A stretch of 64,000 nt of DNA, from contig JACQHJ010000001.1 of assembly GCA_016199085.1 (NCBI GenBank), positions 72,477 to 136,476 on the forward strand, in the 5' to 3' direction. This document shows, piece by piece, positions 16,761 through 39,720 of the stretch. The stretch's first letter is position 1. Each line of letters begins with the position of its first letter. A program made the translations under genes and the position numbers. The DNA is from Candidatus Levyibacteriota bacterium (GTDB lineage Bacteria > Patescibacteriota > Microgenomatia > Levybacterales > UBA12049). The notes beneath the pieces were generated by a model. That model worked only from the letters and a program-made list of their open reading frames with translations, did not search any database and was not told the DNA's origin.

Positions 16761-17696
16761 ATGGACAATTTAACCTTTACAAAAATTAAAGAAGCAATAG
16801 AAAAATATAATAATATTGCTATTGCAGTCCCAAGTAATCCTTTAATGGATGAGATGGCTGCTGCGCTTTCTTTATATCTTTCAATTTCAACTTTGGGCAA
16901 AAGTGTATCAATTGCATCTCCTACAACTCCTTTGGTTGAAGTTTCAAATCTCGTCGGAATCGACAGAGTTCAAAACACATTAGGCGGTGGAACAGGAGAC
17001 CTGGTCGTTTCTTTCCCATACAGGGAAGGAGAAATCGAAAAAGTTTCCTATACAAGAGATGATAATTTCTTAAACATTGTTGTCAAAGCCGGAGAATTAG
17101 GTCTTAACTTTGATGAAAAAGCTGTCAGGTTTACAAGAGGCGGAGCATCTCCCGAGCTTTTGTTTGTAATTGGCGCTGAAAGAGTAACCGATCTTGGAGC
17201 CCTTTATGACGTTAATAATCTTAAAGATACGGTTTTGGTAAACATTGATAACAAAGCCGGAAATCAAGGATACGGAGATATAGTAATGGTTTCAAACAAA
17301 CTTTCTTCAATCTCTGAAGCTGTTGCAAACTTACTCATTTCCTTAAATTACAAAATTGATATTGATGCGGCAGAAAATTTATTAGACGGAATAACCGCTG
17401 CAACAAATAATTTTCAAAACCCAAATACAAGTTCCTTGGCTTTTGAAATGGTGGGTATATTGATGAGAACTGGTGCTCAAAGAGCAACTCAACAAACTCT
17501 AGATCCAAGACAGGCACCAAGACAAGATAATTTTATTAAACAAACAGAAAGACAGATTAAAACTGAACAAATTGAAAGAAAAGAAAATGTTATTAGTCAG
17601 CAAAGTCCAATTAGTCAAGGAGCTCCGATAAACCAAACACCTCCTCCGGATGATTGGCTGGAGCCCAAAATATATAAAGGCTCAACCAACTTCTAA
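16761..17696 (+). CDS. DHH/DHHA1-family protein (NrnA-like) with a degenerate DHH motif
   Basis: IAIAVPSNPLMDEMAAAL occupies the place of the HxNPDGDAxGS motif; GGG-containing DHHA1-like C-terminal half; position after infB matches actinobacterial/firmicute synteny. Confidence 0.5.
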   Translation: MDNLTFTKIKEAIEKYNNIAIAVPSNPLMDEMAAALSLYLSISTLGKSVSIASPTTPLVEVSNLVGIDRVQNTLGGGTGDLVVSFPYREGEIEKVSYTRDDNFLNIVVKAGELGLNFDEKAVRFTRGGASPELLFVIGAERVTDLGALYDVNNLKDTVLVNIDNKAGNQGYGDIVMVSNKLSSISEAVANLLISLNYKIDIDAAENLLDGITAATNNFQNPNTSSLAFEMVGILMRTGAQRATQQTLDPRQAPRQDNFIKQTERQIKTEQIERKENVISQQSPISQGAPINQTPPPDDWLEPKIYKGSTNF

Positions 17697-17985: not shown

Positions 17986-18014
17986 TTGCTAATTTTATTC
18001 AAAATTGATATAAT
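17986..18014 (+). promoter_or_regulatory. promoter TTGCTA-17-TGaTATAAT (extended -10) for rpsO-pnp
   Basis: Sequence match about 40 nt upstream of the rpsO start. Confidence 0.45.
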
Positions 18015-18054: not shown

Positions 18055-18324
18055 ATGCCACTTAGTTCTTCACAGAAAAAAGACATAATTAAAGAATTTC
18101 AAACAGTCAAAGGAGATACGGGAAGTCCCGAAGTTCAGGTTGCGCTTTTAACGCATAGAATTGACAGATTAACAGAACATCTAAAGCTTCACGGACATGA
18201 CAATCACTCAAGACGCGGCCTTTTATCAATGATTGCAAAAAGAAGAAGACTAGTTAACTTTTTGGAGAAAGTGGACAAAAAGAGGTCCTCTGAAATTACA
18301 AAGAGAGTTGGACTAAAAGATTAA
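18055..18324 (+). CDS. rpsO: 30S ribosomal protein S15
   Basis: LTHRIDRLTEHLKLHGHDNHSRRGLLSMIAKRRRLVNFL. Confidence 0.95.
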   Translation: MPLSSSQKKDIIKEFQTVKGDTGSPEVQVALLTHRIDRLTEHLKLHGHDNHSRRGLLSMIAKRRRLVNFLEKVDKKRSSEITKRVGLKD

Positions 18325-18333
18325 GTAGATTTA

Positions 18334-20679
18334 ATGAAAAAAACCTCAGTAAGTACTGAAATCGCAGGAAAGACATTGACACTTGAGACAGGTGAACTAG
18401 CCAAACAAGCTACATCATCGGTTTTGGCCCGTCTTGGAGACACAATGGTTTTGGCAACCGTTGTTGCGGGATCTAAAAACACAGAACTTGATTATTTCCC
18501 ATTATCAGTTGAATACGTTGAAAGACTTTATGCTGGTGGAAGAATAAAAGGATCAAGATGGGTTAAAAGAGAAGGAAGACCAACGGATGATGCAATTTTA
18601 ACAGGAAGACTAATTGATAGATCAATTAGACCCCTTTTCCCAAAAGCATTTAAAAGAGATGTCCAAGTAGTAGTCACTGTTTTATCAGTTGACGGAGAAA
18701 ACGAACCGGATGTACTTTCCATCATTGCAGTATCCGCTGCACTTCACGCATCACCAATCCCATGGGACGGACCAGTTTCTGCAGTTAGAGTTGGACACGT
18801 TAAAGAAAACGGAAACGGAAAGACAGAGTTAATCATTAATCCGGGAAGTGCTGAATCAGATTTCTCAGAACTAGATCTTGTCGCAACCCAGACAAAAGAT
18901 AAAACCTTAATGCTTGAAGCAGGAGCTTTGCAGGTTTTGGAGGAAACAATGGTTGAGGCAATTGCTAAAGCCCACGTTGAAAACAAAAAGATAATTGAAT
19001 TTATCGAAGACTTTGCCAAAAAAGTAGACACTAAAAAAGAAGAAACACCAATTGATGCAGCCTTAAATGAAATGGTTGCAACACTAGATAAAAACTACAA
19101 AGACGAGATATTGGCTTTAATTCCCTCAAGAGCCAGTAAAGAAGGAAACGGCAATGAGGCAGGAGCCTTAATTGACAAAATCTATGAAAGCCAAAAAATG
19201 GCAAACCCTGAAGAAAATATTGACAAGAAAGTAATTGCAACTGCCCTTGAAAAAGTCATGTTTAAAGGAATTAGAGTAGATGTACTAAAAAAGAAAAAAA
19301 GAGCAGACGGAAGAAAAGTCGATGAGATAAGACAAATTGAAGTAAAGGTAGGACTTTTGCCAAGAACACACGGAAGCGCAATTTTCCAAAGGGGAGATAC
19401 ACAGGCTTTGACAGTTGTAACGCTTGGATCTCCCAGAATGGAACAATTGATTGAATCCGCAGAAGGAGAAGAAATTAAAAGATATATTCACCACTATTCA
19501 ATGCCTCCATATTCAATCGGTGAAACAGGCAGAATGGGAACACCATCCAGAAGAGAAATCGGACACGGAGCACTAGCTGAAAGAGCGATTGCAGCCGTTA
19601 TTCCAAGCCAGGATACTTTTCCCTATACGATTAGAGTCGTATCGGAAATCCTTTCTTCTAACGGATCAACATCAATGGCGTCAACCTGCGGATCAACGCT
19701 TGCCTTAATGGATGCAGGAGTTCCAGTTCTAAAACCTGTTGCAGGAATTGCCATTGGTCTTATGACGGGTGAAGATCCCGATAAAGAATATGTTTTATTA
19801 ACAGATATCTTGGGTCTTGAGGATTTCTCGGGAGACATGGATTTCAAAGTTGCAGGAACAGAGAGCGGTATTACGGCAATTCAACTGGATGTAAAAATAA
19901 AAGGGTTAAATATTACCCAGATAAAAGAAACATTTGAGAAAGCAAAGATAGCAAGGCTTGAGATTTTGCAGAAAATGCTTTCAGTAATCCCAACTTCAAG
20001 AGAAGAAGTTAGTGCATTTGCACCAAAGATTGAAATAGTTAAAATCCCGGTTGAAAAAATCGGAGAAGTAATCGGACCCGGAGGAAAAGTAATTAAAAAT
20101 ATTATCGCAACAACAGGAGCCACAGTTGACGTAGAAGATAACGGATCGGTTGCAATTTCAGGAACCTCTGAGGAAGCAGTCCAAAAAGCCGTTGAATGGG
20201 TAAAATCATTAACCAGAGAAATAACAGTCGGAGAAGCTTTTGAAGGTGAAGTAAAAAGAATACTTCCGTTTGGAGCATTCGTAGAATTCTTGCCTGGTAA
20301 AGAAGGAATGGTCCACGTTTCCAAAATGTCTACGGAATTTGTCAACAATCCAAACGACATTGTCCAAATAGGACAAAAAGTTAAAGTAAGAGTTGTTGAG
20401 ATTGACGATCAGGGAAGAATAAATCTTTCGATGCTTTTTGGAGCTGATGCAGAAGCTAAAGAAAAAGCGGGTCCACAAAGAGGTCCGCAAACTGGCGGAT
20501 ATGAACCAAGAGGCTTTACGCCCAGAGGTCCACAAAGAGGAGGACAAAGAAGTTTTGATAGAAGACCACCAATGGGAACAGCCGGACCTTCTTCAGAGCA
20601 TCCTTTGTCAATGCAGTTTAAAAGAGAAAGAAGAGAAAATTGGAGAAAAGATAAATACAGTAAGAAACCACGCTATTAA
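18334..20679 (+). CDS. pnp: polynucleotide phosphorylase with an RG/PQ-rich C-terminal tail
   Basis: Two RNase PH domains, KH (GPGGKVIKNI) and S1 domains, then GPQRGPQTGGYEPRGFTPRGPQRGGQR. Confidence 0.95.
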   Translation: MKKTSVSTEIAGKTLTLETGELAKQATSSVLARLGDTMVLATVVAGSKNTELDYFPLSVEYVERLYAGGRIKGSRWVKREGRPTDDAILTGRLIDRSIRPLFPKAFKRDVQVVVTVLSVDGENEPDVLSIIAVSAALHASPIPWDGPVSAVRVGHVKENGNGKTELIINPGSAESDFSELDLVATQTKDKTLMLEAGALQVLEETMVEAIAKAHVENKKIIEFIEDFAKKVDTKKEETPIDAALNEMVATLDKNYKDEILALIPSRASKEGNGNEAGALIDKIYESQKMANPEENIDKKVIATALEKVMFKGIRVDVLKKKKRADGRKVDEIRQIEVKVGLLPRTHGSAIFQRGDTQALTVVTLGSPRMEQLIESAEGEEIKRYIHHYSMPPYSIGETGRMGTPSRREIGHGALAERAIAAVIPSQDTFPYTIRVVSEILSSNGSTSMASTCGSTLALMDAGVPVLKPVAGIAIGLMTGEDPDKEYVLLTDILGLEDFSGDMDFKVAGTESGITAIQLDVKIKGLNITQIKETFEKAKIARLEILQKMLSVIPTSREEVSAFAPKIEIVKIPVEKIGEVIGPGGKVIKNIIATTGATVDVEDNGSVAISGTSEEAVQKAVEWVKSLTREITVGEAFEGEVKRILPFGAFVEFLPGKEGMVHVSKMSTEFVNNPNDIVQIGQKVKVRVVEIDDQGRINLSMLFGADAEAKEKAGPQRGPQTGGYEPRGFTPRGPQRGGQRSFDRRPPMGTAGPSSEHPLSMQFKRERRENWRKDKYSKKPRY

Positions 20680-20722: not shown

Positions 20723-21784
20723 ATGGATTCTGTCCAAAATCTCGATAGTGACATCTTGAAATTAGAAGAAAAGGTAAAAGCCGCAAATCTTCCTTCGGAT
20801 TTAGTTGAAAAAGTAAACACAATGTTATCGATCATAAAAATGAGTTTAAAAACTGGCAACAGCCAGATCTCAAACTTTGAAAATATTCAAAATTATATTA
20901 ATTTAATTTGTTTACTTCCCTTTAACTCTGAAACCAAAGACACAATGGATATTAATTTTGCAAGAGAGGTTTTGGATAAAAACCATTACGGATTAACATC
21001 GGTCAAAAACACTATTTTGGAATATCTGTCAGCTTTGATTTTAAGTATGGAAAAAGCGTCAAGCGCTGAAATAAGAGCACCGATTCTTTGCCTTGTGGGA
21101 CTTGCCGGAACCGGAAAAACAACTCTGGCTTACTCAATCGCAGAGGCTTTGGGAAGAAATTATGAAAGAATTCCTTTTGGAGGAATGGGTGATGCTTTGG
21201 CACTTCGTGGACAATCAAGAAGTTTTGCCGATGCAGAACCTGGTCAGATTATTAAAAAGTTAATTCATGCAAAAAGCAAAAATAGCGTTATACTTCTAGA
21301 CGAACTCGATAGGGTTTCAGACAGTGCCAGGGCAGATATTATGGGAGTATTGGTAGAGCTACTGGATAGTGAACAAAATAAAGCATTTTCCGATCACTAT
21401 GTAGATTATCCTTTTGATTTATCCCATGTATTGTTTGTCGCAACGGCAAATAATACAACCAATATCTCAACAGCTGTACTAGACAGAATGGAGATAATCC
21501 AAATGCCATCATATTCAGATGAAGAAAAAACAGTTATCGGCAAAAATTATTTAATGCCTAAAATAATTAAACAAGCAGGGCTAGTTGAAGGTCAAATTGC
21601 TATTGAGGAAAGCGTCTGGCCGCTAATTATTAGACCCCTTGGTTTTGACAGCGGAACAAGAAGTTTGGAAAGAACATTGGAAACTATTGCAAGAAGAACG
21701 GCAAGATTAATAGTTGAAGGAAAATTAGATAAAAATGGTAGAATGATTGTAACAAACGAAAATATTAAACAATTTATTAGTTAA
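20723..21784 (+). CDS. lon: Lon-type AAA+ ATPase module without the S16 protease domain or the N-terminal substrate domain
   Basis: HYGL, ILEYL, ILCLVGLAGTGKTTLAYSIA, LLDELD, FSDHY, LFVATANN and LLDRMEII match LonA motif for motif. The ORF stops about 5 aa before RNase J begins. Confidence 0.75.
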   Translation: MDSVQNLDSDILKLEEKVKAANLPSDLVEKVNTMLSIIKMSLKTGNSQISNFENIQNYINLICLLPFNSETKDTMDINFAREVLDKNHYGLTSVKNTILEYLSALILSMEKASSAEIRAPILCLVGLAGTGKTTLAYSIAEALGRNYERIPFGGMGDALALRGQSRSFADAEPGQIIKKLIHAKSKNSVILLDELDRVSDSARADIMGVLVELLDSEQNKAFSDHYVDYPFDLSHVLFVATANNTTNISTAVLDRMEIIQMPSYSDEEKTVIGKNYLMPKIIKQAGLVEGQIAIEESVWPLIIRPLGFDSGTRSLERTLETIARRTARLIVEGKLDKNGRMIVTNENIKQFIS

Positions 21785-21786
21785 TT

Positions 21787-23442
21787 ATGGATGATAAAAT
21801 TTCAATAATTCCCCTAGGTGGTGCCTCAGACGTTACCAAAAACATGTATGTCTACGAATATAAAAACGAAATACTTTTGGTTGATTGTGGTCTTGGCTTT
21901 GCCAATGAAACAATGCTTGGAGTAGATCTTCTAATCCCAGATATTTCATATCTAAAAACATCTGGTAAGAAAATTGTCGGAATGGCAATAACCCACGGAC
22001 ATGAAGATCATATGGGAGCTCTTCCCTATATTCTTCCCGAACTTCCATCATTTCCAATTTATGCAACTCCATTAACAGCAGAGTTTGCCAACAGCAAACT
22101 TAATGAATTTGGAGTTACACAACGAGTTCAAAAAGTTGAGTTTAACGGAGGAGAATTAAAAATAGGCAGTTTCACAATCTCTTTTATAAGAATAACCCAT
22201 AGCGTTCCGGATACCTCAAATATCTTTATCAAGACTCCAGTTGGAAACTTCTATCACGGAAGTGATTTCAAATTTGATCTAACTCCCTATGACGGAAAGA
22301 AAACAGAATTTAAAAAAATTTCCCAGGCAGGAGACAGCGGAATTCTTTGTTTACTTTCAGACAGTTTAAGATCTGAAAAGCCTGGAAGGACACCGTCAGA
22401 AAGTAAACTAACTATGGCATTTGAAAAAGCCATGGAAGAAACAGAAGGAAAATTCCTGGTTACAACATATTCTTCTAATATCTCAAGATTAAATCAGGTC
22501 ATCCATGCGGCAGCAAGGTTAAATAGAAAAATCTGTTTTATCGGAAGATCTGTCATTAAATGTAAAGAAATTGCCCAATCAATGGGATATATGAATATTC
22601 CAAAAGGAATGGAGGTCGAAGTCAAAAACCTTCGAAACTTCAAAGATAAAGATTTGGTTTTAGTTGTTGCGGGAAGCCAGGGGCAGGAAAATTCCGCACT
22701 AACCAGAATAGTCAGCGATGAGTTTAAAGAAATAAAGTTAAGACCAGCCGACACTATTGTTTTTTCTGCGGAAGCAATTCCAGGAAATGAAATATCGGTA
22801 AACTCTTTGATAGATGAAATTGCCAAAAAGGGAGCAAGGGCAATTTATTCAGAAGTTTCGGATGAATTTCATGTTTCAGGACACGGCGCATCTGAGGATT
22901 TGATGTTAATGATGAGTCTTACTAGACCCCAAAACGTTATGCCGATAGGAGGCACTTACAGGCATATGGTTGCGTATAAAGCTTTGGCTAAAAGACAGGG
23001 AATTGATGATAAAAACATTTTTGTAGGAGGAAACGGTCAGGAAGTCGTCTTTAGTAAGAACGGCTCCCATTTTGGAAGAAGACTTAACCTAAAGAATGTC
23101 TACGTAGATCAAATATCAGGTGAAGAAGTGGAAAGTTTTGTCTTGATGGATAGGCAAAAAATAGCCAAAGAAGGAGTTGTGGTTGTAATCTGTGAAGTAG
23201 AGCAAGAAACAGGACAGATAGTTGATAATCCAAATATCATTGCCAGAGGATTTCCTTCACAGGATGCTCAGGATCTTTCCAAAAATCTCTCAAGGGAATT
23301 AAGGCTTGCATTATCACGTAAAAAAGAACCTGTCACAAACTGGATTTATATTAGGAGACTAATTGGTGAAGTTTCTGAGAAACACATCTTCAAAGCATTC
23401 AGGAAACACCCCATGGTTTTGCCCATTGTTATAGAAGTTTAA
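21787..23442 (+). CDS. rnj: ribonuclease J (metallo-beta-lactamase / beta-CASP)
   Basis: AITHGHEDHMGALP motif and beta-CASP-like C-terminus. Confidence 0.9.
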   Translation: MDDKISIIPLGGASDVTKNMYVYEYKNEILLVDCGLGFANETMLGVDLLIPDISYLKTSGKKIVGMAITHGHEDHMGALPYILPELPSFPIYATPLTAEFANSKLNEFGVTQRVQKVEFNGGELKIGSFTISFIRITHSVPDTSNIFIKTPVGNFYHGSDFKFDLTPYDGKKTEFKKISQAGDSGILCLLSDSLRSEKPGRTPSESKLTMAFEKAMEETEGKFLVTTYSSNISRLNQVIHAAARLNRKICFIGRSVIKCKEIAQSMGYMNIPKGMEVEVKNLRNFKDKDLVLVVAGSQGQENSALTRIVSDEFKEIKLRPADTIVFSAEAIPGNEISVNSLIDEIAKKGARAIYSEVSDEFHVSGHGASEDLMLMMSLTRPQNVMPIGGTYRHMVAYKALAKRQGIDDKNIFVGGNGQEVVFSKNGSHFGRRLNLKNVYVDQISGEEVESFVLMDRQKIAKEGVVVVICEVEQETGQIVDNPNIIARGFPSQDAQDLSKNLSRELRLALSRKKEPVTNWIYIRRLIGEVSEKHIFKAFRKHPMVLPIVIEV

Positions 23443-23484: not shown

Positions 23485-25593
23485 ATGGCAAAAAGAAGAC
23501 ACTACCAAAAACAAAAGTTTAAGATTAAGCTAAAGAAAAATACTGTTTATTCCATTTTTGCCTTTGGAGTAATCCTTTCCGGAATTCTTCTTGGTTCCTC
23601 TTTTGCAAAGACAGGTCCGGCACTAACTACGATTAATGATTATATAAAAGCCTATTTTGGCTTTTTATCATTTTTAGTCCCAATACTTTTAATAATCTTG
23701 GGTTTTTTCTTTTTAAGGCTAAAATTGTTTCTTTCAAGGCCAAACGTAAGTGTTGGATTCTTTATTCTGCTTTTATCCCTTCTTGGCCTTACCAAAGAAG
23801 GAATGATAGGAAACTATCTAAACCAGCTGATCGCCGAAGTCTTAAACGGATTCGGAGCTTTTGCAATTTACCTTGCAGGAGTATTGATAGGTATTATTGT
23901 CTTGTTTGATACTTCTTTAGATGAAGTATTCCAGGTAATATCTGCGGTCTTAGGCTTTATTCCAAAACTATTCCCAGGTAGAATTCTCGCCTTTTTCCAG
24001 AAAAAACAAATTCCTGCATTAGGGAACAAAGAAATGGTCATAAAAGGAATGGAGGACAACAAAAATAAAGATATTAAAATTAACTCAAACGTTGTCAAAA
24101 AAGACGAACCGTTCATTTCGGATAAGTTGGTTATGAATACTCCGGGAAAGCCGGGTGTTTGGAAGCTTCCCCCTTTGGATCTTTTATCCTCTGACAGTTC
24201 TCAAAAAGCAGATAGGGGAGACGTCAAAAAAATTGCGACCTTGATTGAAGATACTTTAAAAAGCTTTGGAATCGGAGCAAGGGTCGTTGAAGTCAACCTT
24301 GGTCCGGCCGTCACCCAGTATGCCTTACAGATTCCTCTTGGAACAAAAGTCTCCAAGATTACAAACCTTGCAAACGATTTGGCATTAAACACAGAAGCTC
24401 CAACAGGACAAATTAGGATTGAAGCGCCGATTCCAGGCAGAAACTTGGTTGGCGTTGAAATTCCGAATAAGTCTTTGGAAGTAGTCTCGTTAAGAACAAT
24501 GTTGTCTTCCGAGCCAATGAGAAAGAGCAAGTCAAAACTTGCGGTATCCCTTGGTCTTGATGTATCAGGAAATCCTTTGCTTGCCGATATTGGGAAAATG
24601 CCCCACGTTTTAATTGCTGGAACTACAGGCAGCGGAAAATCGGTTATGATAAACAGTTTCATAGCTTCACTTTTGTTTAGGGCAACACCCGATGAGATAA
24701 GGATAATTATGATTGATCCTAAAAGAGTTGAACTTACGGGTTATAACGGCATTCCTCATCTAATGACACCAGTCATTGTTGAGGTAGATAAGATTTTGGC
24801 TTCTTTAAAGTGGGCAATGAGTGAGATGGACAGAAGATACAAGACTTTTGCAGAACATGGAGTCAGAAACATTGATTCATATAATGAGCTGGCGGGGTTC
24901 CAAAGACTTCCTTATATTGTTATTTTCATTGACGAACTTGCAGATTTAATGGCTTATGCTCCTGTCGAGGTTGAAGATGCTATTGCAAGGCTTGCCCAGA
25001 TGGCAAGAGCCACAGGAATCCATTTAGTAGTCTCAACGCAGCGTCCATCTGTTGACGTTATCACAGGTCTTATCAAGGCAAATATTCCCTGCCGTATTGC
25101 CTTTAACGTTTCCTCCATGATTGACTCCCGTGTCATCATCGATATGCCCGGTGCTGAAAAACTCTTAGGTCGTGGGGACATGTTGTATATCCCTCCTGAT
25201 CAGGCAAAACCATCGCGCATCCAGGGAGCATTTGTTTCGGAAAAAGAAGTAAGAGGATTGGTTGATTTTCTCAAAAATGAAAATCCACCTGTACAATACA
25301 CAGAAGAAGTATTGGCAGAACCTCTTATTGCCGCCAAAAAAGGCATGGCTTCAATGGGGGGGGACGGAAAAGATGCGCTTTTTGATGAGTCCGTCAGAAT
25401 TATCTGCCAGCACGATAAAGCATCGGCATCGCTACTGCAAAGAAGACTATCAATTGGTTATTCAAGGGCGGCCAGAATACTAGACCAGCTTGAAGCAGTA
25501 GGAGCTGTAGGAAGACAAGAAGGAAGTAAACCAAGGGACGTTTTAATTACGAACGCTGATGAATTCATCGCAAATGTAAGTCAAAATCAGTAA
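23485..25593 (+). CDS. ftsK: DNA translocase FtsK/SpoIIIE
   Basis: N-terminal TM helices, Walker A GTTGSGKSV and a C-terminal gamma wHTH LLQRRLSIGYSRAARILDQLE. Confidence 0.9.
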   Translation: MAKRRHYQKQKFKIKLKKNTVYSIFAFGVILSGILLGSSFAKTGPALTTINDYIKAYFGFLSFLVPILLIILGFFFLRLKLFLSRPNVSVGFFILLLSLLGLTKEGMIGNYLNQLIAEVLNGFGAFAIYLAGVLIGIIVLFDTSLDEVFQVISAVLGFIPKLFPGRILAFFQKKQIPALGNKEMVIKGMEDNKNKDIKINSNVVKKDEPFISDKLVMNTPGKPGVWKLPPLDLLSSDSSQKADRGDVKKIATLIEDTLKSFGIGARVVEVNLGPAVTQYALQIPLGTKVSKITNLANDLALNTEAPTGQIRIEAPIPGRNLVGVEIPNKSLEVVSLRTMLSSEPMRKSKSKLAVSLGLDVSGNPLLADIGKMPHVLIAGTTGSGKSVMINSFIASLLFRATPDEIRIIMIDPKRVELTGYNGIPHLMTPVIVEVDKILASLKWAMSEMDRRYKTFAEHGVRNIDSYNELAGFQRLPYIVIFIDELADLMAYAPVEVEDAIARLAQMARATGIHLVVSTQRPSVDVITGLIKANIPCRIAFNVSSMIDSRVIIDMPGAEKLLGRGDMLYIPPDQAKPSRIQGAFVSEKEVRGLVDFLKNENPPVQYTEEVLAEPLIAAKKGMASMGGDGKDALFDESVRIICQHDKASASLLQRRLSIGYSRAARILDQLEAVGAVGRQEGSKPRDVLITNADEFIANVSQNQ

Positions 25594-29242: not shown

Positions 29243-29974
29243 TTAGGTTTTAACCAGTCTTGCTTTAATAGCGAGTCTTTTCCAGATTGTCCCAGGAGGC
29301 GTACAGGTAATTAAAGTAATGTAGCTATCATCAAAGCTTTGCTCCAAAACTGATGTGTTATCAGGGTCAACAACCAATATACTTTCAATCCTGTATTTGT
29401 AGGTTACATTTCCGGCACTGACTATTATTTCATCTCCTATGGTTAATTTGTAAAGAAAGGTAAAGATTGTTTTATAGTTTCCTTCCTGGTAAAGCTGGGG
29501 AAGAGTTGAATGGCCAAAAATTACTGCATTTCCGTTATCAGGCGGTACAGCGGTTCCTCCGTAATTTACCAAATGTTTAAGTAAATCTGTATCAACTGCC
29601 GAAACTTCTGCGTCTTTTATGTCAATTTTGGGAATGGATATCTTATAAAAGGCGGTTTTAATATTTTCCGATTTATCATACTTGTAACTTGGAAACCAGT
29701 TCTGGGCATTTGTATAATCAACTCCGGAAAGAGTCTGAGAAGCACCTGTTAAAAGAGAGTTGATCGAGCTTTGGGTTACGAGTGTACTTTTAGGAATCGG
29801 TGAGTTGATTTCGGAATTGGCAAAAACAGGTGCAAAGTATAATTGCCAGGAAATCAAAGGGAAAAAGACGTAGCCTGCTACTAAAATTCCCATAGCAATG
29901 ATAAAAAGGCTAACCAGCTTTAAGAATTTTTTCCTCCCTATTGTTGCTCGTCTTTTTTTATATACCTTTACCAT
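29243..29974 (-). CDS. sortase-family transpeptidase
   Basis: N-terminal TM anchor, FGHS and TLITC motifs. Confidence 0.65.
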   Translation of the reverse strand: MVKVYKKRRATIGRKKFLKLVSLFIIAMGILVAGYVFFPLISWQLYFAPVFANSEINSPIPKSTLVTQSSINSLLTGASQTLSGVDYTNAQNWFPSYKYDKSENIKTAFYKISIPKIDIKDAEVSAVDTDLLKHLVNYGGTAVPPDNGNAVIFGHSTLPQLYQEGNYKTIFTFLYKLTIGDEIIVSAGNVTYKYRIESILVVDPDNTSVLEQSFDDSYITLITCTPPGTIWKRLAIKARLVKT

Positions 29975-32302
29975 TTAATTAGAAGAGATATTAATAGTTA
30001 TATTATTGGGATTTTTAGGAAGCGTTGATGAGACAAAGGGCAGATTGGGTGTTACCCTTATATCAACTTCTTTAACATTTGTCAGATTTGAAAGCATGTT
30101 CTTTGTCTTCACTACATCTGTCCCTGCAATCTGTTTAATAAGGTCTTGGGTATTTATGTTTGGGAAGAGCTTTGCAGAAACCACCAAGTCTGCGGTTATA
30201 TCTTCATTTTTTTGTAATTTTATGTTTTTGGCATTAACGCTAAACTCACTTTTATCAATGGAAAAGGCAGAGTTGTCAAACATTTTCTCAGACAGTTTCT
30301 TTACGTCTTTATTGTCATATGAGAGAAAATCAAAAGAAACAGTTGCGGAAAGACTAACCTTATCTGCCTGGTCGTCCTCTTTTTTATCAAACTTTTCTTT
30401 GGTTAACGTTGTATCAACAAACTGGGGAAGAATTGTTCTTCCATCCTTTACTTTAGATGCAATGTCGCCTTTTGCTTTATCAGACAAGGTTTTAGGAAGT
30501 TCAGATCGAAGTTTTGCCAGATCATTATCTGAAACTACGGTTACATTTTTCTTTGTTCCGCCAGAGAATGCATTGTCATTTTTTCCGGCAACTGTTTTAC
30601 TTGTGCCGACTGTGAATTTGGCGCCACTTGGAAGATTTGATTCTGTTCCTATTTCCTCAGCTGTTACGTTTACGTTTGTAGTTCCGGGTTTTGTCCCTGA
30701 GAAGACGTCTCCTGAGGCAGAAGCTACTTTAATAGAAGAGTCTAAGACAAATTTAAGTCCGGTTGAAGAGGTAATTACGGTTCCTGAGTTTAAACTTACA
30801 GAGTCTGTATCGTTATTAAAGATTGTTACCGTTCCTTTGGCTTTTGTACCGATATCTTTCTTTCCGCTTGCATTAACAGTCGTTGATCCCTCTTCATCAA
30901 CTGGGATAAGTTCTGCTCCTAAGGTGTTGTCGTCAATATTGGTTTGTCCGTTTGGAGTAAAAGTTATACTTTGGGTTTTTTCATCTGTTTTTGGATCAAC
31001 GATTAACGTTACCTTGGCACTTGTTTGGAAAATGAAGGTAAAGAAGATAAAAAGAGCCAAAATTAAACCTCCAAGGGCAAAAGCAATAAATTTAATGTCT
31101 TTTACGCTTCGAACTTTAATTAGAGGAAGAATTAGAATAAAATACTTTTTAAGTAACCCCATTACGTCAATTGAGACAGTTTTAGCTTTGGTTGCAGTTT
31201 CAACCGCAAGTTCCGGTGTTCCATAGCTTTCTTCTTCAAGCTTTACGTCTTGGGGGATCTCGGCGGATCTAAATTCAAGTTCTTCTTTGGGAAGATCGGC
31301 TAGAGGTTCTTTGGCAGATGCTACCTTTGCTACAGGAGGAGCCTGCTTGACAACGTCGCCACTACTAAAGCCGAAAAACTCCAAAGACGAGTCTTTGCCC
31401 ACATAGTCTAATTTTCCCTCACTCTTTTCCTCTTCGAATGGTTTTGGCTTTGCTTCTTCCATTGATTCATCGTCGGTTTTTATCACTTCCGGCTCTTCAT
31501 CCTCTTTTTTGGCAAATTCTTTAGAAAGAGTTTGGTTATGGTCAAAGATAAGAGCCGTTCCCATCTGAGTTGCGGCACCCAGTAGCACTGCTTTTATATC
31601 TGCGTCCTGGGGAAGACTCATAATTTGGGGGATATGTAAAAAGGGAAGTGATTTACTCCACTTGTGGTTTATAAATTCCTGGGTTAGTTCGTCTTCTTCG
31701 CTATCTAAGACAATAATTCTTGCGGGCATTACTTCGGGGATTTGGAAGTGTTTTAAGACGGTATCAACTGTGTGAGTAACTGATTCGTGTATCTCGGATG
31801 ATCTTACCTCCATTATCTTTCCCGCTCTTATTAAAGAAACGGAGAGGTATTTCTTGCCAACGTCGACAAGGATGGCTGTAACCGGCGCTCCTTCATCTTT
31901 GTGGATTAGATTAACAACGCTTTCTGTAAAGACCAAAAAGCCGATTGGATCAAGGGATAATTCTTCTCCTGCTTTTTTAAGTTTCTCCAGATACTCTTTT
32001 TTAATCTTATTGTCTTCAACCCAGGATTCTTTTAAACCAAAAATAGTTTTGTGGGTTTCGATATCCTTAGGGAGTACTTCTTCGGCAGCGGTTATTGCCT
32101 TATCAAGTACGTTTAGGAATTCTTCGGTTGAGGCGTCCTCAATCGTATTGGTGAATTCTTCTTCGGAGTCGTTTAGGTATTTGATTGTGGTACCAATTTT
32201 CTCAAATACCACAGCCTTAACTTTTTCGTTTCTTAAAATAAGAGATAAGAAATATTCGGATTTTTCTTTTTTATCAAGAAAGGGCAGTGTCGAAATATTC
32301 AT
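29975..32302 (-). CDS. PilM-like actin-fold N-terminal domain fused through one TM to a large S/T/N-rich extracellular beta-rich domain
   Basis: KVKAVVFEKIG and AILVDVGKKYLSVSLIRAGKI resemble PilM/FtsA; a mid-protein TM; C-terminal half rich in T/S/N/V/K. Confidence 0.4.
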   Translation of the reverse strand: MNISTLPFLDKKEKSEYFLSLILRNEKVKAVVFEKIGTTIKYLNDSEEEFTNTIEDASTEEFLNVLDKAITAAEEVLPKDIETHKTIFGLKESWVEDNKIKKEYLEKLKKAGEELSLDPIGFLVFTESVVNLIHKDEGAPVTAILVDVGKKYLSVSLIRAGKIMEVRSSEIHESVTHTVDTVLKHFQIPEVMPARIIVLDSEEDELTQEFINHKWSKSLPFLHIPQIMSLPQDADIKAVLLGAATQMGTALIFDHNQTLSKEFAKKEDEEPEVIKTDDESMEEAKPKPFEEEKSEGKLDYVGKDSSLEFFGFSSGDVVKQAPPVAKVASAKEPLADLPKEELEFRSAEIPQDVKLEEESYGTPELAVETATKAKTVSIDVMGLLKKYFILILPLIKVRSVKDIKFIAFALGGLILALFIFFTFIFQTSAKVTLIVDPKTDEKTQSITFTPNGQTNIDDNTLGAELIPVDEEGSTTVNASGKKDIGTKAKGTVTIFNNDTDSVSLNSGTVITSSTGLKFVLDSSIKVASASGDVFSGTKPGTTNVNVTAEEIGTESNLPSGAKFTVGTSKTVAGKNDNAFSGGTKKNVTVVSDNDLAKLRSELPKTLSDKAKGDIASKVKDGRTILPQFVDTTLTKEKFDKKEDDQADKVSLSATVSFDFLSYDNKDVKKLSEKMFDNSAFSIDKSEFSVNAKNIKLQKNEDITADLVVSAKLFPNINTQDLIKQIAGTDVVKTKNMLSNLTNVKEVDIRVTPNLPFVSSTLPKNPNNITINISSN

Positions 32303-32310
32303 ATATACTT

Positions 32311-34107
32311 TTAATCTACTTTGGCATAGATTCTTTTATATCCTTTACCTAAATTCTCTTGCTTTATTATTCTAAAACTTTTAATCGCTCCTGTAAACTC
32401 AACGTGCGGCCCTCCGCAAAATTCCCTGGAATAATCTCCTATAAAATACACCTTTACATTATCAGAATACTTTTCATCAAACAGTCCTATGGCTCCAAGC
32501 TCCTTAGCCTTGGCAAGAGGCATAATTTCAAAGTGGACAGGGAGGTTGTCTTTAATTTTACCTCTTACTATTTCTTCAACCTTTCGAAGTTCTCCTTCGG
32601 AGAGCATTTTGTCGTGGTTAAAGTCAAAGCGGAGACGCTCTGAGGTTATATTACTTCCAGATTGGTGGAGTTTATCTCCAAAGATGTCTCTTAATGCCTG
32701 GTGTAAAAGATGTGTTGCAGTGTGTCCTTTGATTGTTAGCTCGGAAGTATCAGCAAGGCCACCTTTAAACATGCCTGAAGAGGCTGTTTTGGATAATTCT
32801 TTGTGTTTTTCCATTGAATCAGCAAATTCTTGATCGTTAAAGGTGTAACCCATGCTTTTTATCTGTGTTGGGGAAAGTCCATATGATGTATAGAGATTAA
32901 AGGCAGTTTCTGCAGAAATGATCTTAAATCCTTTAAGCTCATCTCCTACTTCGATTTCATCTTTAACATTAATCTCTAAAAATTTCTTTGCCTCACTCAG
33001 AGCCTTTTTATATTTTTGGCCTTCTTCTAATATGGAATTTTTAATGAGTTCAAAGTTTGCTTTAAGGCTTTCGTCTGTTTTAGAGCATTCTTCTACAATT
33101 GCAGTGAGAATAGAGGAGAGTTGATCTTGGTTTACCTCTCCCAGGTTATCGATGGCTCTTCTTATCAGTCTTCGAAGGATATATCCTCTTTCTTTATTAG
33201 ACGGTTCTACTTTTGCATCAAGAAGGTAAGCTGAGGCACGAAGGTGGTCTGCAATGATTCTAAACTCTCTTTGGTTTTCTTTGTAGGATTTAGAAGTTGC
33301 GGATTCAATAGCGTCAATGATTGGTTTAAAAAGAGAAGTTTGGAAAATATCAGACTTATTTTCTACTGCAGCCAATAATCTTTCAACTCCTCCTCCAAAA
33401 TCAACGTTTTTGTTAGGTAATTCTTTAAACCCGTCTTCTGTTTTTATGTATTGCATAAAGACAGAATTGGCAATTTCTGAAAATTTACCACATTCACATT
33501 TAACAGGATTATCGCCTTCACATTTATCAGTATGTTCAATATCGTCGAATCTAAAATATACTTCTGTATCCGGTCCTCCAGGTTCACCGATTGGCATTTT
33601 GTCAGGGGTTCCACTTCTTGACCACCAGTTAGTATCATCTGCAAAAATTCTATCTTCAAGTCCTTCTTTTACTAGTACATCTTTCCAGATCTTTTCTGCT
33701 TCAGTGTCATAGCCAATATTTTCATATCCATTAAAAACAGATATATATAGTTTTTCTTTAGGTAACCTTAGCTCTTTGGTTAGAAATTCCCAAAGCCAGG
33801 GGATTTCTTCGGATTTGAAATAATCTCCCAAGGACCAGTTGCCTAGCATTCTGAAAAATGTTGTATGCCTATTATCTCCAACTTCTTCAATATCAACTGC
33901 TCTGAAGCAATTTTGTACGTCAACAAGCCTGTTTCCAGAAGGGTGAGGTTCGCCTAAAAGATATGGAACCAGTGGCTGCATGCCGGAAGAGGTGAAAAGA
34001 GTTGTTGGATCATTCTCTGGAACCAAAGGAGAGTTGGTAATTTGTTTATGTTTTCTTTTTTCAAAAAAAGAAATATAAACGTCTATTATTTGCTTAGTAC
34101 TTAACAT
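32311..34107 (-). CDS. alaS: alanyl-tRNA synthetase, compact (no C-Ala domain)
   Basis: FTSSGMQP and FFRMLGNWSLGDYFK class II motifs; editing-domain motifs HTATHLLHQAL and CGGPHV. Confidence 0.85.
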   Translation of the reverse strand: MLSTKQIIDVYISFFEKRKHKQITNSPLVPENDPTTLFTSSGMQPLVPYLLGEPHPSGNRLVDVQNCFRAVDIEEVGDNRHTTFFRMLGNWSLGDYFKSEEIPWLWEFLTKELRLPKEKLYISVFNGYENIGYDTEAEKIWKDVLVKEGLEDRIFADDTNWWSRSGTPDKMPIGEPGGPDTEVYFRFDDIEHTDKCEGDNPVKCECGKFSEIANSVFMQYIKTEDGFKELPNKNVDFGGGVERLLAAVENKSDIFQTSLFKPIIDAIESATSKSYKENQREFRIIADHLRASAYLLDAKVEPSNKERGYILRRLIRRAIDNLGEVNQDQLSSILTAIVEECSKTDESLKANFELIKNSILEEGQKYKKALSEAKKFLEINVKDEIEVGDELKGFKIISAETAFNLYTSYGLSPTQIKSMGYTFNDQEFADSMEKHKELSKTASSGMFKGGLADTSELTIKGHTATHLLHQALRDIFGDKLHQSGSNITSERLRFDFNHDKMLSEGELRKVEEIVRGKIKDNLPVHFEIMPLAKAKELGAIGLFDEKYSDNVKVYFIGDYSREFCGGPHVEFTGAIKSFRIIKQENLGKGYKRIYAKVD

Positions 34108-34222
34108 GCATATATTATATCAGGCTATAGTTCGGTTTGAAATGTATCCTTACATGAAAGAAGAACCTCTGAAAATAAGTTTCTGGCTCGATTTAAATAC
34201 AGAAAAGATATAGAATAATATT

Positions 34223-37200
34223 ATGAATTTAACTAATTTTGTTAAGTATTGCCTTGGATATGTTAAGTTAACGAAACAAAGATCCTTTTTCTCCCAACAA
34301 AAAAATAGCCTAGAGCTTGATAAGGACCAACTAAATCTTGAAGGTTTGCTAAATGGAGAAGCAGATGGTCAATTAGCGGAGATAATAAATTTAAAGACGT
34401 TTTATTCAAATGATCCTAAAAATATAAGTGGGGAAGAAGAAGAGCAGTATCTGAAAGAAAAAAATTTAGCCAACAAAATTCAAGAAATTTACAATAAGTT
34501 TAGAAACGATCAGTTCACCAAAGAAATCGCAATAAACTTTGGATATTTTGAAATAGAATTAACCTTGGATAATGTTAACGAAGAAGATCAAGATGTGGAG
34601 ATTCAAGAAAAAGAAGTCAAGATAAGTAAATATCCTCTTTTTTCTCTTCCAGTAAAAATCGAAACACAAATAGAAAATGGAATCTACAAGTATTATCTTT
34701 ATTATTCGGACCAAGAGATTAAAGTAAATCTTAATGTATTAGAGAAATTATTTGATGAAAATAATAAAGCAGATACTTTTTATCAATTGATAGAAAAGAT
34801 TGGGGAGGAAGAGATCCAGGGCAAATTTTCTTTACCCATAATTGAGCATGACATACTTTATGAGACTTGGGATAAAGTAAGAGCATTATTAAAACTCACA
34901 GATGCAAAATTTGAGGATGAATCCTTCAATTTAGAAGAAAGTACTCTGTCTTTAAATTCAAAAAGTAATTATTTTTTAGCTGAAGATCTTTTAAAATTGT
35001 CTAAAATAGAAGCAGAAGAACTTAAGGGAACAGCGCTAGAGAGTTGGGTAAGTGATGCGGAAACAAATCTGGAAAGCGAAGTACCCAGTGAGGAGCAATT
35101 ATATTTCCCATTTCCATACGATAGATTTCAGCTTAAGTCACTTTCATTATTGGGTAATCAAGCATCCATAATTCAGGGACCTCCGGGAACAGGAAAATCA
35201 GAAACTATTGCTAATATCTTGTGTCATTTGGCTGCTAATGGAAAAAAAGTTTTGTTTATAAGTCAAAAATCCCAAGCATTGAAAGTGGTTAAAGATAAAT
35301 TAAAAAAAACTGGAATTAATTATATGTTTGGTTATGTTCCCAATCCAGCCTCCGCAAGCGTTACCGAAGAAGATGAAACGGATGGAATTGCCCCACAGCT
35401 TACTGCCTTAAATACTTTTATACAGAAGATGACTTATAAATTAAACTATTGGAATGAGAGAAAGGAGACATTAGGGACAATCTCTCAAAGAATAGGAGGA
35501 TTAAAAAAAAGTTTTAACTCAGTTATAGAAGATGAAAGAAATTATTTTACTCTTCATGAAGAACTAAATGAGCTCTTAAGATATAAAAGTGAAATCGGTA
35601 ATAATAAGGACTTTTTTGAAAATGCTGATTCTGAAAAATGGGAGAAGATTAAAGAATTGATTAATCAATTCCAGGCAGTTGATCTTGAATTATTAAAATA
35701 TAAAAAAAATAATAACGATTTCTCAAATAGATTCCCAATAGAACTTTTCCAAAACGAACAATATTCAATTAAGATTAATGAAATATTGAGTAATGTTTCT
35801 AAAACAGGTTATGATAGAAATTCAAAATTTTTTAGATGGTTGAATAATACTAAAAGAAACATAATATTAAGAAATGTAAGATCCGCCCTTCCCTCCGAAG
35901 TTATTAATGAAATCGACAAAATACTAAATAGTGAAATAAGTAAACATGAATCCAGTAGGCAATTAACTGAGTTAAATGAATTTATCATATTTAGAGAAAA
36001 TACTGTCTTAAAGCAGAAGATTAATGAAGAAATTAAAAAAGGTCTAGAGGTAATCGGTCTAAACATAGACCAATATAAAAATATAGAAAAAATAATAAAA
36101 CAGACTGGCATTGATTTCAAAATCTACAAGGATAAGATTGAAAAGATTAACGAGCTAGAAATACAATTGAAAGATTTAGCAAAAAATTATGATCTTTCAG
36201 AATTGAGAAAAAGCATTAACTCTTCTAAAATTAGTAGATCAAATGTTATAAGCTCCTATATTCAAAATATAATTAACAAAAGAATTATGGACAAGTGGAT
36301 GCTTCAAAATATAAAAAGAGTAGTTCTTAGATTAGCAAAAGCATTTGGTAAGTCGAAGAAAGCATACAAAACCTTCGATGAGCTTAGGAGAGATCCGGAA
36401 AATTTCAATTCTATTATTGACTTAGTGCCTGTATGGATTATGGAGCTTGACGATGCGAGTAGAATTATTCCATTAATGCCCAGAATGTTTGATTATGCAA
36501 TTCTAGACGAAGCTTCTCAATGCAATGTAGCCTATACGCTTCCAGTAATGTTCAGAGCTAAAAAAATTGTCTTTGTGGGTGATCCAGAGCAAATGAGAGA
36601 TAGCACGATTCGATTTAAAGCAAACAGGGATTTTGATGAGCTTGCTAAAAAATATAGTATTCCAGGTGATTTGCAAATAAAATCCACTGGAAATGCAGTC
36701 CAGTCAGTACTAGACATAGCCTTACTTAGAGGATTTAATTCTAATAATCTTCAGTATCATTACAGGTCACCAAAGGAACTTATCGGATTTAGTAATCAAT
36801 ATTTTTACAAACCCAAGGGTAAAGAATTAATCGCATTGAACAACAACTATCTTACATATAGAGATACCAACAGGATAATGTTAGTTCACGAAGTTGAGAA
36901 TAAAAAAAATAATAACGAAGAGATAGCAGATAATATTAATATTGCTGAAGCTAAAGCTATATTAAGTTTTTTTAAGGAATTAAGAGAAAATCCTAATACT
37001 AAAGATAAATCTATAGGTATTTTAACCTTCTTTAATGGACAAGCAACTTATATAAGAGAATTATTTGAGCAAGAAGGATTTAAGGAAGAAGACGATAACT
37101 ACATAGTTAGTATTATTGAAGGTATTCAAGGAGACGAAAAAGATATTATTTTGTATTCTTTTGTAATTAGAGAACTCGATCAAAAAAGAAAATATGGAGC

Positions 37201-38026
37201 ATTAACTGGAGAAGGAGGAGATATTTTAGGTGATATAAATAAGGGAAGGGTAAATGTTGCTTTTACTCGAGCTAGATTACAGGTTCATTGCTTTGTTAGT
37301 ATGGACCCACTTCCTGATAGAATTTGGATTAAAAAATTTATAGACTATATTAAAGAAAATGGAGAAATTAATTTCTATTCGAGCGAATTAAATGATTTTG
37401 ATTCTTTTTTTGAAAAAGAATTTTACGCATATGTAAAAGACTCACTCTCAAAGGAGTATCTTATCCAAAACCAGGTAGAAAGTTGTGGTTTTAAGATTGA
37501 TTTTGTAATCTCCTATAAGCAAACAGGTAAAAGACTCGCAATTGAATGTGATGGCCCAACACATTTCGAAAATGAAGTTGATCAAGAGCTCGGTATTTAT
37601 GTTGAAAGCGATGAAGAAAGACAAACTGTTCTGGAGGCGGCAGGTTGGAGTTTCTATAGAATTAAATATTCAGACTGGATAGATAAGAACAAAGTTAAGG
37701 ATGTATTTATAAATGAAATTAAAAATTATTTCAAAATTTCTTCTGAGAGAGAAACTATTATAGCAAAACCCAAAATAAGTAAGTATGAAGGTATAAAGAT
37801 AGATTTCGATTTAAATCCATATTTGAATAACAAAGAAGTTTGGTTCCTGTTGTCGGTTTGGGGTAAAAAGAGTGGTCAATTTATTGGATTTCAAAATAAA
37901 TTTTGTTATTCTCTAGGTAGATATCTTTCTAGGAAACCTGAGTTAACAGTTAAACAAGCAAACTATGGAAGATATCTTCTTAATACAGCAATTAAAAAAG
38001 GATTTTCCCTAGATGGAATTAAATGA
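34223..38026 (+). CDS. DUF4011 + SF1 (Upf1-like) helicase + C-terminal DUF559 / Vsr-like PD-(D/E)xK nuclease fusion
   Basis: Walker A GPPGTGKSE; LDEASQ; VGDPEQM; NYRSPKELIGFSNQYFY; VAFTRAR; C-terminal FKIDFVISYK...LAIECDGPTHF...AGWSFYRI. Confidence 0.8.
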   Translation: MNLTNFVKYCLGYVKLTKQRSFFSQQKNSLELDKDQLNLEGLLNGEADGQLAEIINLKTFYSNDPKNISGEEEEQYLKEKNLANKIQEIYNKFRNDQFTKEIAINFGYFEIELTLDNVNEEDQDVEIQEKEVKISKYPLFSLPVKIETQIENGIYKYYLYYSDQEIKVNLNVLEKLFDENNKADTFYQLIEKIGEEEIQGKFSLPIIEHDILYETWDKVRALLKLTDAKFEDESFNLEESTLSLNSKSNYFLAEDLLKLSKIEAEELKGTALESWVSDAETNLESEVPSEEQLYFPFPYDRFQLKSLSLLGNQASIIQGPPGTGKSETIANILCHLAANGKKVLFISQKSQALKVVKDKLKKTGINYMFGYVPNPASASVTEEDETDGIAPQLTALNTFIQKMTYKLNYWNERKETLGTISQRIGGLKKSFNSVIEDERNYFTLHEELNELLRYKSEIGNNKDFFENADSEKWEKIKELINQFQAVDLELLKYKKNNNDFSNRFPIELFQNEQYSIKINEILSNVSKTGYDRNSKFFRWLNNTKRNIILRNVRSALPSEVINEIDKILNSEISKHESSRQLTELNEFIIFRENTVLKQKINEEIKKGLEVIGLNIDQYKNIEKIIKQTGIDFKIYKDKIEKINELEIQLKDLAKNYDLSELRKSINSSKISRSNVISSYIQNIINKRIMDKWMLQNIKRVVLRLAKAFGKSKKAYKTFDELRRDPENFNSIIDLVPVWIMELDDASRIIPLMPRMFDYAILDEASQCNVAYTLPVMFRAKKIVFVGDPEQMRDSTIRFKANRDFDELAKKYSIPGDLQIKSTGNAVQSVLDIALLRGFNSNNLQYHYRSPKELIGFSNQYFYKPKGKELIALNNNYLTYRDTNRIMLVHEVENKKNNNEEIADNINIAEAKAILSFFKELRENPNTKDKSIGILTFFNGQATYIRELFEQEGFKEEDDNYIVSIIEGIQGDEKDIILYSFVIRELDQKRKYGALTGEGGDILGDINKGRVNVAFTRARLQVHCFVSMDPLPDRIWIKKFIDYIKENGEINFYSSELNDFDSFFEKEFYAYVKDSLSKEYLIQNQVESCGFKIDFVISYKQTGKRLAIECDGPTHFENEVDQELGIYVESDEERQTVLEAAGWSFYRIKYSDWIDKNKVKDVFINEIKNYFKISSERETIIAKPKISKYEGIKIDFDLNPYLNNKEVWFLLSVWGKKSGQFIGFQNKFCYSLGRYLSRKPELTVKQANYGRYLLNTAIKKGFSLDGIK

Positions 38027-39412: not shown

Positions 39413-39720
39413 TAATAAATTGCAAGTAGAAATGTAACTTAAATTACCACAATTAAAATATGACTCTTATGTAGTTTGGGCAGGTAAAAATAGTAAAAGA
39501 GACTTATAGGAAATTGCTATAGTTAGGTTAACTTTTGTTTTAGTTTGAAATAGTTATTTGAGGCTATAAAGTATTCAAATATTCGTTTGACAAACCAAGC
39601 GACTTGGATAATTATACATATGTATAAGTAATTTCTTCATATCTTGAAGAAATTTACACAGGGTGTTATAATTGCAGTCCTTTGTACTGCCCCTAAGTAC
39701 ATTAAAATTGAATTTATCAC

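Follow-up and report, generated by a model that had tools for sequence, protein, structure and literature searches.

A Lon-derived AAA+ ATPase without N domain and protease domain in Levybacteria and other Patescibacteria

Lon is the textbook case of a motor fused to a protease. In LonA, represented by the Lon proteins of E. coli and Y. pestis, B. subtilis LonA and human LONP1, a substrate-binding N domain and a three-helix linker precede the AAA+ ATPase and its lid, and an S16 protease domain with a Ser-Lys dyad follows; in LonB and LonC, too, an AAA-like module is fused to S16. LonC, exemplified by the Lon-like protease of Meiothermus taiwanensis (PDB 4FW9), is ATP-independent: this class has lost its ATPase, which is degenerate and inactive, and has kept the protease. 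LonC is among the Lon classes listed in PMC9961632. Here we describe a family that did the opposite, starting from a gene found in a stretch of 64,000 nucleotides (hereafter the window) from a Candidatus Levyibacteriota bacterium (assembly GCA_016199085.1, contig JACQHJ010000001.1, positions 72,477 to 136,476 of the forward strand). The gene lies at positions 20723-21784 of the window and encodes a Lon-derived ATPase of 353 amino acids with neither N domain nor S16 domain. Like LonC, the family, whose members we call short forms, derives from Lon and has surrendered one of its two activities, but it is the mirror image of LonC, with intact ATPase motifs and no protease.

We hold it to be fairly probable (about 0.6) that the protein is an autonomous, ring-forming, ATP-hydrolysing Lon-type motor without a proteolytic chamber, i.e. 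a remodelling or unfolding ATPase. Yeast Pim1 is one of the Lon proteins known for a ‘chaperone’ activity that does not depend on the protease. Another instance of such activity, that of Wohlever, Baker and Sauer (2014), is cited in PMC9961632. In these cases the protease domain is present though not needed and the N domain takes part; both are absent from the short family, which would be a natural and permanent version of a Lon motor working without proteolysis and could serve as a minimal system for the study of this activity, which has been debated for a long time. A conserved clade with every ATPase residue, no protease or N domain and a rebuilt pore loop would mean that the motor is selectable on its own.

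Domain content and the search for the missing parts

The gene is intact. An ATG start and a TAA stop frame the open reading frame (ORF) exactly, and what is encoded is the three-helix linker of LonA, its AAA+ nucleotide-binding subdomain and its lid, no more. The landmarks are the following (aa, residues of the 353-amino-acid protein; LonA numbering in brackets).

20723-21784, plus strand: Lon-derived AAA+ ATPase lacking both N domain and S16 protease domain; complete ORF, 353 aa
20723-21052, plus strand: helical linker, equivalent to the LonA NTD3H three-helix bundle above the pore; aa 1-110, from alignments and AlphaFold2 helices
21098-21121, plus strand: Walker A, GLAGTGKT; aa 126-133, K132/T133 invariant
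21206-21244, plus strand: pore loop 1, RGQSRSFADAEPG; aa 162-174
21287-21304, plus strand: Walker B, VILLDE; aa 189-194, D193/E194 invariant
21449-21451, plus strand: sensor-1 Asn243 (LonA N473), invariant
21485-21487, plus strand: trans-acting arginine finger Arg255 (LonA R484), invariant in 237/237 short forms
21569-21727, plus strand: Lon-type alpha-helical lid (Pfam Lon_lid); aa 283-335
21659-21661, plus strand: sensor-2 Arg313 (LonA R542), inside the lid, from residue mapping

The Pfam domains of the protein are AAA (aa 122-260) and Lon_lid (aa 283-335), and there is no other; Lon_C (PF05362) gave no match, and the LON N domain (PF02190) is absent, the protein beginning at LonA position ~253. 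The alignment with the NCBIfam lon model TIGR00763 spans model positions 253-572 of 795 only, and its score, 321.3 bits, is below the curated equivalog cut-off of 608.05; with NF008053 the score is 250 against a cut-off of 891. On domain content, then, the protein is not a Lon protease. A hydrophobic membrane insertion of the LonB type is likewise absent. Among solved structures the top match is B. subtilis Lon (3m6a, E 2.4e-70, query 10-352), and the linker plus ATPase part of the B. subtilis, E. coli, Y. pestis and human proteins aligns with residues ~10-352, identity to LonA in these comparisons being 36-38%. The AlphaFold2 model (pLDDT 78, pTM 0.73) has the LonA fold, three-helix linker and whole lid included: it superposes on LonA chains with a TM score of 0.7-0.8 and, with a TMt of 0.85, on 6N2I, a fragment engineered from the AAA+ part of E. 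coli Lon. The latter is a laboratory truncation, whereas the short form is a natural stand-alone protein. Helices are modelled in the linker at residues 2-21, 25-44, 49-63, 77-87 and 92-111, and the sole stretch of low confidence is residues 155-167, which overlaps pore loop 1.

There is no coding potential for a protease or an N domain in any frame of the 64-kb window. When E. coli Lon was compared with all frames by tblastn (a full-length query, which served only as a probe), matches were confined to Lon residues 254-580, and with the S16 and Lon-N domains of three canonical LonAs the best E value was 0.04. These results agree with a first-pass annotation of the window, made from the sequence alone, which had reported a LonA match through the ATPase and lid, an end about 40 residues past the RSLER motif, RNase J as the next gene, no adjacent S16 domain and a missing N-terminal substrate domain. 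The motifs HYGL, ILCLVGLAGTGKT, LLDELD, FSDHY, LDRMEII and RSLER are all present, the protein ends 36 residues after the last of them, and a complete RNase J gene (551 aa) follows directly after a spacer of 2 nt.

The search was extended to the flanks (±10 kb) of 89 family loci representing three genomic contexts, 1.1 Mb in total, a survey that covers flanks rather than whole genomes. No S16 or Lon-N gene was present in these flanks, nor was either domain found among the Pfam-annotated neighbours in the three contexts. No trustworthy full-length Lon was found from the short-form lineages: the two candidates with CPR (candidate phyla radiation) labels carry ordinary full-length LonA and both sit on contigs that are almost certainly mis-binned contaminants. 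In one, labelled Saccharibacteria (L068), the Lon sequence shares 83-85% identity with proteins that bear a Gammaproteobacteria label, and the other, labelled Patescibacteria group (L058), has 70.9% GC, against 36-43% in the genuine loci.

These searches bear on the possibility of a split, two-component Lon, in which the ATPase ring would dock on a separate S16 peptidase ring and proteolysis would occur in trans, as with HslU/HslV. There are precedents, since ClpX and HslU, of the HCLR clade, work with a separately encoded peptidase. Both have known partner peptidases, docking elements (C-terminal tail, IGF loop) and an aromatic-hydrophobic pore loop. The short form resembles these single-ring motors only as an HCLR-clade AAA+ protein on a chain of its own, without a fused peptidase. 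Its pore loop is still constrained, as would be expected if substrates were threaded somewhere. Lon itself is grouped with ClpX and ClpA-D2 in the HCLR clade (PMC7239648). However, split genes usually remain adjacent, and neither the window nor the flanks hold S16 or Lon-N, the only CPR-labelled full-length Lons found being the mis-binned ones. Unlike HslU and ClpX, the short family has no partner, docking motif or adjacent peptidase gene that we could find: the protein ends 1-3 residues past the last lid strand, N-[ILF]-[KR]-x-[FY]-x-x, and the Levybacteria branch shows no conserved tail for docking. The NCBIfam ClpX models score 15.8-17.2 bits on it, against cut-offs of 359-371. We therefore consider a split Lon unlikely. 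The split gene proposed by the first-pass annotation is weakened to the same extent, within ±10 kb of the 89 loci, and a partner encoded further away in the genome could still exist. An HbYX-like docking motif at the C-terminus was considered and rejected; the aromatic residue is at position -3 or -4, not penultimate, and merely belongs to the last lid strand.

A family of short forms under purifying selection

The best 120 database homologues are all 347-360 aa long and 66-91% identical to the protein, with AAA and Lon_lid only. Those with a name are assigned to Candidatus Levybacteria or the Patescibacteria group. The contigs that carry the homologues are as long as 863 kb and come from four independent sources of data (NCBI, JGI, ENA and Logan). 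Among the 50%-identity representatives searched, short forms at 40-56% identity stop 1-3 residues from the same C-terminus. A profile built on the distant forms brought 120 further clusters into the list, again with AAA and Lon_lid only (342-456 aa, contigs of 560-846 kb); most are labelled Candidatus Dojkabacteria, some Nomurabacteria or ‘Patescibacteria group’. At least 237 homologue clusters were listed, every one of the short architecture, 342-456 aa in length and ending just past the lid, with no S16 domain in any of the 237, and the stop position is common to hundreds of independent assemblies.

The gene is under strong purifying selection. Against a 90%-identical orthologue, the ratio of nonsynonymous to synonymous substitution rates (dN/dS) is 0.083 at a dS of ~1.0; pairs further apart are saturated at synonymous sites, with 66-69% identity still left in the protein. 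Among the options left by the first-pass annotation, a truncated pseudogene and a frameshift at the junction with RNase J can be discarded, and a genuine, proteolytically inactive Lon-derived ATPase is borne out by the comparison with orthologues that it had called for, the relatives being all short with the same C-terminus. All that speaks for a pseudogene, a frameshifted lon or an assembly artefact is that a Lon protein would a priori be expected to have its protease fused to it. Against it stand the stop shared by independent assemblies, the dN/dS value, the invariant catalytic residues, the lack of an S16 remnant in any frame and the complete RNase J gene downstream, both in the window and in 62 of 67 relatives. 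The chance of such an artefact is in our view practically negligible.

In a neighbour-joining tree of the conserved core, the short forms fall on one side of a single branch that separates them from 45 canonical LonAs in 200/200 bootstraps, although the LonA sample was biased by the way it was retrieved and long-branch attraction may affect this clade. Judging from this tree, the family is monophyletic and fast-evolving and belongs to Patescibacteria/CPR (Levybacteria, Dojkabacteria and others). Since all the short forms are on a single branch, the N and protease domains appear to have been lost once, long ago, the shortened gene being inherited vertically from then on. The closest full-length LonA relatives are generic (e.g. 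Clostridiales), and no parent within CPR was identified.

A search of the literature for protease-less LonA-type ATPases and for Lon in CPR found no description; the family is previously undescribed, yet widespread in the ultra-small bacteria of CPR. Its members are named ‘AAA family ATPase’ at NCBI and ‘ATP-dependent Lon protease’ at JGI, and because of the latter label reconstructions of CPR proteostasis and metabolism may credit these bacteria with a protease that is absent. Two leads were abandoned. N-terminal extensions occur in some members, and as low-complexity tails rich in Q/P/S/T they were dropped as a clue to function. A scan of a genome collection with a distant member (P0163) was swamped by ordinary LonA through the common DPEQN motif, and only two of the loci it returned (L007, L008) were useful.

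Residues kept, residues changed and the proposed motor

Residue roles, including that of the trans arginine finger R484, were taken from a cryo-EM study of Y. pestis Lon (PMC7239648) and mapped on 312 sequences: 120 of Levybacteria type, 117 of Dojkabacteria type and 75 canonical LonAs. K132/T133, D193/E194, N243, R255 and R313 are identical in 312/312, and the bridging glutamate E217 (LonA E447) is invariant in the Levybacteria type and in LonA and present in 109/117 sequences of the Dojkabacteria type. The protein thus has the same Walker A/B residues, bridging glutamate, sensor-1, trans arginine finger, sensor-2 and Lon lid as LonA, and as far as motifs can tell its nucleotide engine is intact.

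The changes are of another kind. In pore loop 1, LonA RGHRRTY[VI]GA[LM]PG has become RGQSRxF[S/A/P]DAEPG in the Levybacteria branch. The LonA pincer, Y398/I399 after the tandem R395/R396, is not found; the 353-aa protein has F168-A169 after S165-R166, i.e. S165 for R395, F168 for Y398 and A169 for I399. The first position of the tandem is Ser in 120/120 Levybacteria-type sequences, the Tyr398 position is F107/Y7/M5/L1 in this type and Tyr in 75/75 LonAs, and the Ile/Val399 position holds a small residue in the Levybacteria-type branch. Two acidic residues have appeared: Asp170 in 207/237 short forms, where 75/75 LonAs have Gly, and Glu172 in 236/237, where 75/75 have Leu or Met. The net charge of the 13-residue loop is 0 in 120/120 Levybacteria-type sequences versus +3 in 75/75 LonAs. 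Elsewhere, Leu127 (L/I/V127 in the family) stands where all LonAs have Pro (GPPGxGKT), a segment RGDP has Ile/Val in the family instead of the LonA Pro, and Pro305 in the lid is a family-only invariant (237/237). Expressed as motifs, the swaps are GL.G.GKTT for GPPG.GKTS and RPLG[FY]D.G.R for YTREAGVR, and the lid of the 353-aa protein carries the family-specific RPLG[FY]D. In the NTD3H linker, Y58 (LonA Y294) is conserved in the family, and position 61 (LonA W297) is Trp in most members and Leu in the 353-aa protein. The pattern suggests that the substrate-contacting surface is re-specified and not decaying.

One could read these changes differently, namely that the protein is a non-threading nucleotide switch or a nucleic-acid-binding ATPase, acting on DNA or RNA as a ring or a monomer. 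The Tyr-hydrophobic pincer and one tandem Arg are lost, the aromatic residue is variable in the Dojkabacteria branch, and neighbouring genes (pnp, rnj, ftsK, UDG) act on nucleic acids; as possible models, RuvB belongs to the same clade and DNA binding has been reported for the Lon lid. But the change in pore charge from +3 to 0 goes in the wrong direction for threading a nucleic acid, and the rest of the loop is conserved together with NTD3H Y58/W61, as in a Lon-like axial channel. We regard this explanation as very unlikely.

The autonomous Lon-type motor remains our preferred interpretation. Starting from architecture, conservation, selection, clade structure, motif status and operon placement, which were all observed, we infer ring formation, ATP turnover, use of the pore and the type of client. 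Because the arginine finger works in trans, Lon-like ring assembly and ATP hydrolysis are most likely. The central pore is probably still in use, since pore loop 1 is tightly constrained (RGQSR.F.DAEPG being near-invariant in Levybacteria); a Phe-small pair would take the place of the Tyr-Ile/Val pincer, in a loop that is neutral to acidic instead of +3, and basic clients would plausibly be favoured. The ring would have neither a degradation chamber beneath it nor a Lon N domain on top, and its output would be chaperone-like remodelling or unfolding of proteins, free of proteolysis.

Several points weigh against this interpretation. The Tyr398 position is not conserved in the Dojkabacteria type (S41/Y26/F14/E11 in 117 sequences), and canonical threading of polypeptides is therefore uncertain in that branch. 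The P domain contributes to the stability of the LonA hexamer, and an AAA+ module by itself may therefore have to oligomerise by some other means. An S16 partner peptidase may also be encoded elsewhere in the genome. In favour of the interpretation, chaperone genes are present within 10 kb in all three genomic contexts (hrcA-dnaK-dnaJ-clpB in the window, dnaJ in the Dojkabacteria-type loci L087/L088, groES/EL-clpB in a third lineage, L089), but this proximity may simply be conserved gene order, and a CIRCE/HrcA operator was sought in the window and none is present, so that regulation by HrcA/CIRCE was rejected.

Genomic neighbourhood and other observations

The window has a GC content of ~37% and is dense with housekeeping genes. 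The local order is hrcA-(grpE)-dnaK-...-dnaJ-...-clpB/C-nusA-infB-(311-aa ORF)-rpsO-pnp-LonAAA-rnj-ftsK, where LonAAA stands for the short-form gene. Its operon partners are listed below.

18055-18324, plus strand: rpsO, upstream
18334-20679, plus strand: pnp (PNPase), upstream
21782-21789, plus strand: tight operon junction, with the TAA stop (21782-21784), a 2-nt spacer and the ATG of RNase J (21787)
21787-23442, plus strand: rnj (RNase J), downstream; 551 aa, beta-CASP, RNase_J_C
23485-25593, plus strand: FtsK, downstream

No terminator-like site was found on the plus strand in the pnp-LonAAA or LonAAA-rnj spacers, in a scan whose results were not above chance, and the best promoter-like site is at 17986-18014, upstream of rpsO, in a promoter scan that was likewise not above chance. 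The gene would be co-expressed with genes of RNA decay and translation.

This placement brings up another possibility, which partly overlaps the motor model: the protein could be an accessory of RNA decay, a degradosome-like partner of PNPase and/or RNase J that might remodel ribonucleoprotein substrates or the nucleases themselves, possibly via the basic C-terminal tail of PNPase. In Levybacteria-type loci rnj is directly 3′ of the gene in 62 of the 67 that could be evaluated; the stop-to-start spacer has a median of 3 nt and is ≤5 nt, or the genes overlap, in ~49/75 relatives. On the other side, pnp is directly 5′ in 45/59 relatives and farther upstream in 12 more. Adjacency to rnj outlasts insertions between pnp and the gene, which consist of bAvd plus a reverse transcriptase in one locus (L005) and an acetyltransferase in another (L006), and in the Dojkabacteria-type loci L087 and L088, at ~40-44% identity, the gene is again the first after pnp. 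An acidic or neutral pore would also suit a basic tail such as the conserved one of the neighbouring PNPase. However, in these Dojkabacteria-type loci UDG and other genes intervene before rnj, and the third lineage (L089) has the order yidC-jag-rplY-LonAAA-x-ftsA-x-groES-groEL-clpB, i.e. the gene lies between rplY and ftsA with neither pnp nor rnj nearby. The protein has no RNA-binding domain in Pfam. Moreover, the gene order pnp...rnj...ftsK/spoIIIE is old and has been conserved in Firmicutes and Actinobacteria; genome compaction may thus have produced the adjacency in passing, and we take it as weak evidence of function. On balance a role as an accessory of RNA decay is possible but doubtful.

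A bolder version, which we judge decidedly unlikely, would be that the CPR lineages with a short form have no Lon protease at all, and that the re-tooled Lon motor serves them as a protease-free unfoldase or remodeller tied to the RNA-decay machinery. The acidified pore would then engage the basic tail of PNPase, or basic RNA-binding or ribosomal proteins. If true, this would add a component of a new type to the degradosome or to ribosome quality control, and nature itself would have shown that the Lon ATPase has a function of its own in the cell.

Some features of the neighbouring genes deserve mention in their own right. The C-terminal tail of PNPase after the S1 domain (~20440-20679, the last ~80 codons) is 65-90 aa long, basic and rich in Gly/Pro/Arg; an EHPL[SA]xQx[KR]RER motif and a terminal Tyr are found in all the Levybacteria relatives examined, and Dojkabacteria-type PNPases have different basic tails. 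The insertion in L005 (Levybacteria GCA_016182185.1, 8532-9965), between pnp and the ATPase gene, resembles with its bAvd/reverse transcriptase pair a cassette of a diversity-generating retroelement. Between infB and rpsO, a slot held in other bacteria by rbfA/nrnA/truB, the window has a 311-aa ORF (16761-17696, plus strand) without a Pfam match. All the relatives examined have an ORF there, also without a Pfam match, with lengths of 301-319 aa at the four Levybacteria loci and of 442 and 219 aa at those of the Dojkabacteria type. A further one, in L007, is 376 aa long (the Pfam scan covered the other loci).

Lon relatives of quite another architecture appeared among the representatives. P0121 (Dependentiae, 1113 aa), P0123, P0125, P0127 and ~30 others have two to three tandem Lon-type AAA modules; Lon_C is confirmed by Pfam in P0121 and P0123, and the S16 active-site motif is present in several others. 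This unusual multi-ring architecture is unrelated to the short family by motif signature. P0121, P0123, P0125 and others were considered as Rosetta-stone fusions that would tie the short family to a Lon protease, and rejected, since they have the canonical GPPG.GKT and E.GVR and not the family signature, and their high rank came only from summed scores. Membership among anti-phage defence ATPases (BrxL, IetA, DolB and others in PADLOC) was rejected too: the matches of the 353-aa protein are weak and partial, in the AAA part (DolB, the best, 32 bits), and the locus is a housekeeping operon, not a defence island.

Elsewhere in the window, a gene at 34223-38026 (plus strand) encodes a 1267-aa helicase-nuclease (AAA_11/AAA_12 plus REase_MTES_1575) that strongly matches the PADLOC candidate defence protein PDC-S37 (4e-70) and Hhe (1.7e-35). 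It lies in a stretch of 30% GC (~34000-38000, against ~37% for the window) with a tRNA gene nearby, and this segment looks like a small defence or mobile island. A 76-nt tRNA at 39719-39794 (minus strand; Rfam, 58 bits) is called tRNA-Ser with anticodon ACT by ARAGORN; its acceptor stem is rich in A-U (AAAGCCG/CGGCTTT) and a long variable arm is missing. For a bacterial tRNA-Ser an anticodon with A34 is unusual, and so is the class-I shape. A sortase gene (29243-29974, minus strand) adjoins a 775-aa ORF without a Pfam match (29975-32302, minus strand); the pair is conserved in Levybacteria relatives and may be a sortase and its surface-protein substrate. Lastly, a SAM-I/IV riboswitch (2266-2365, minus strand; 55.6 bits, a score above its gathering threshold) is located directly upstream of the S-adenosylmethionine synthetase gene (1155-2249, minus strand).

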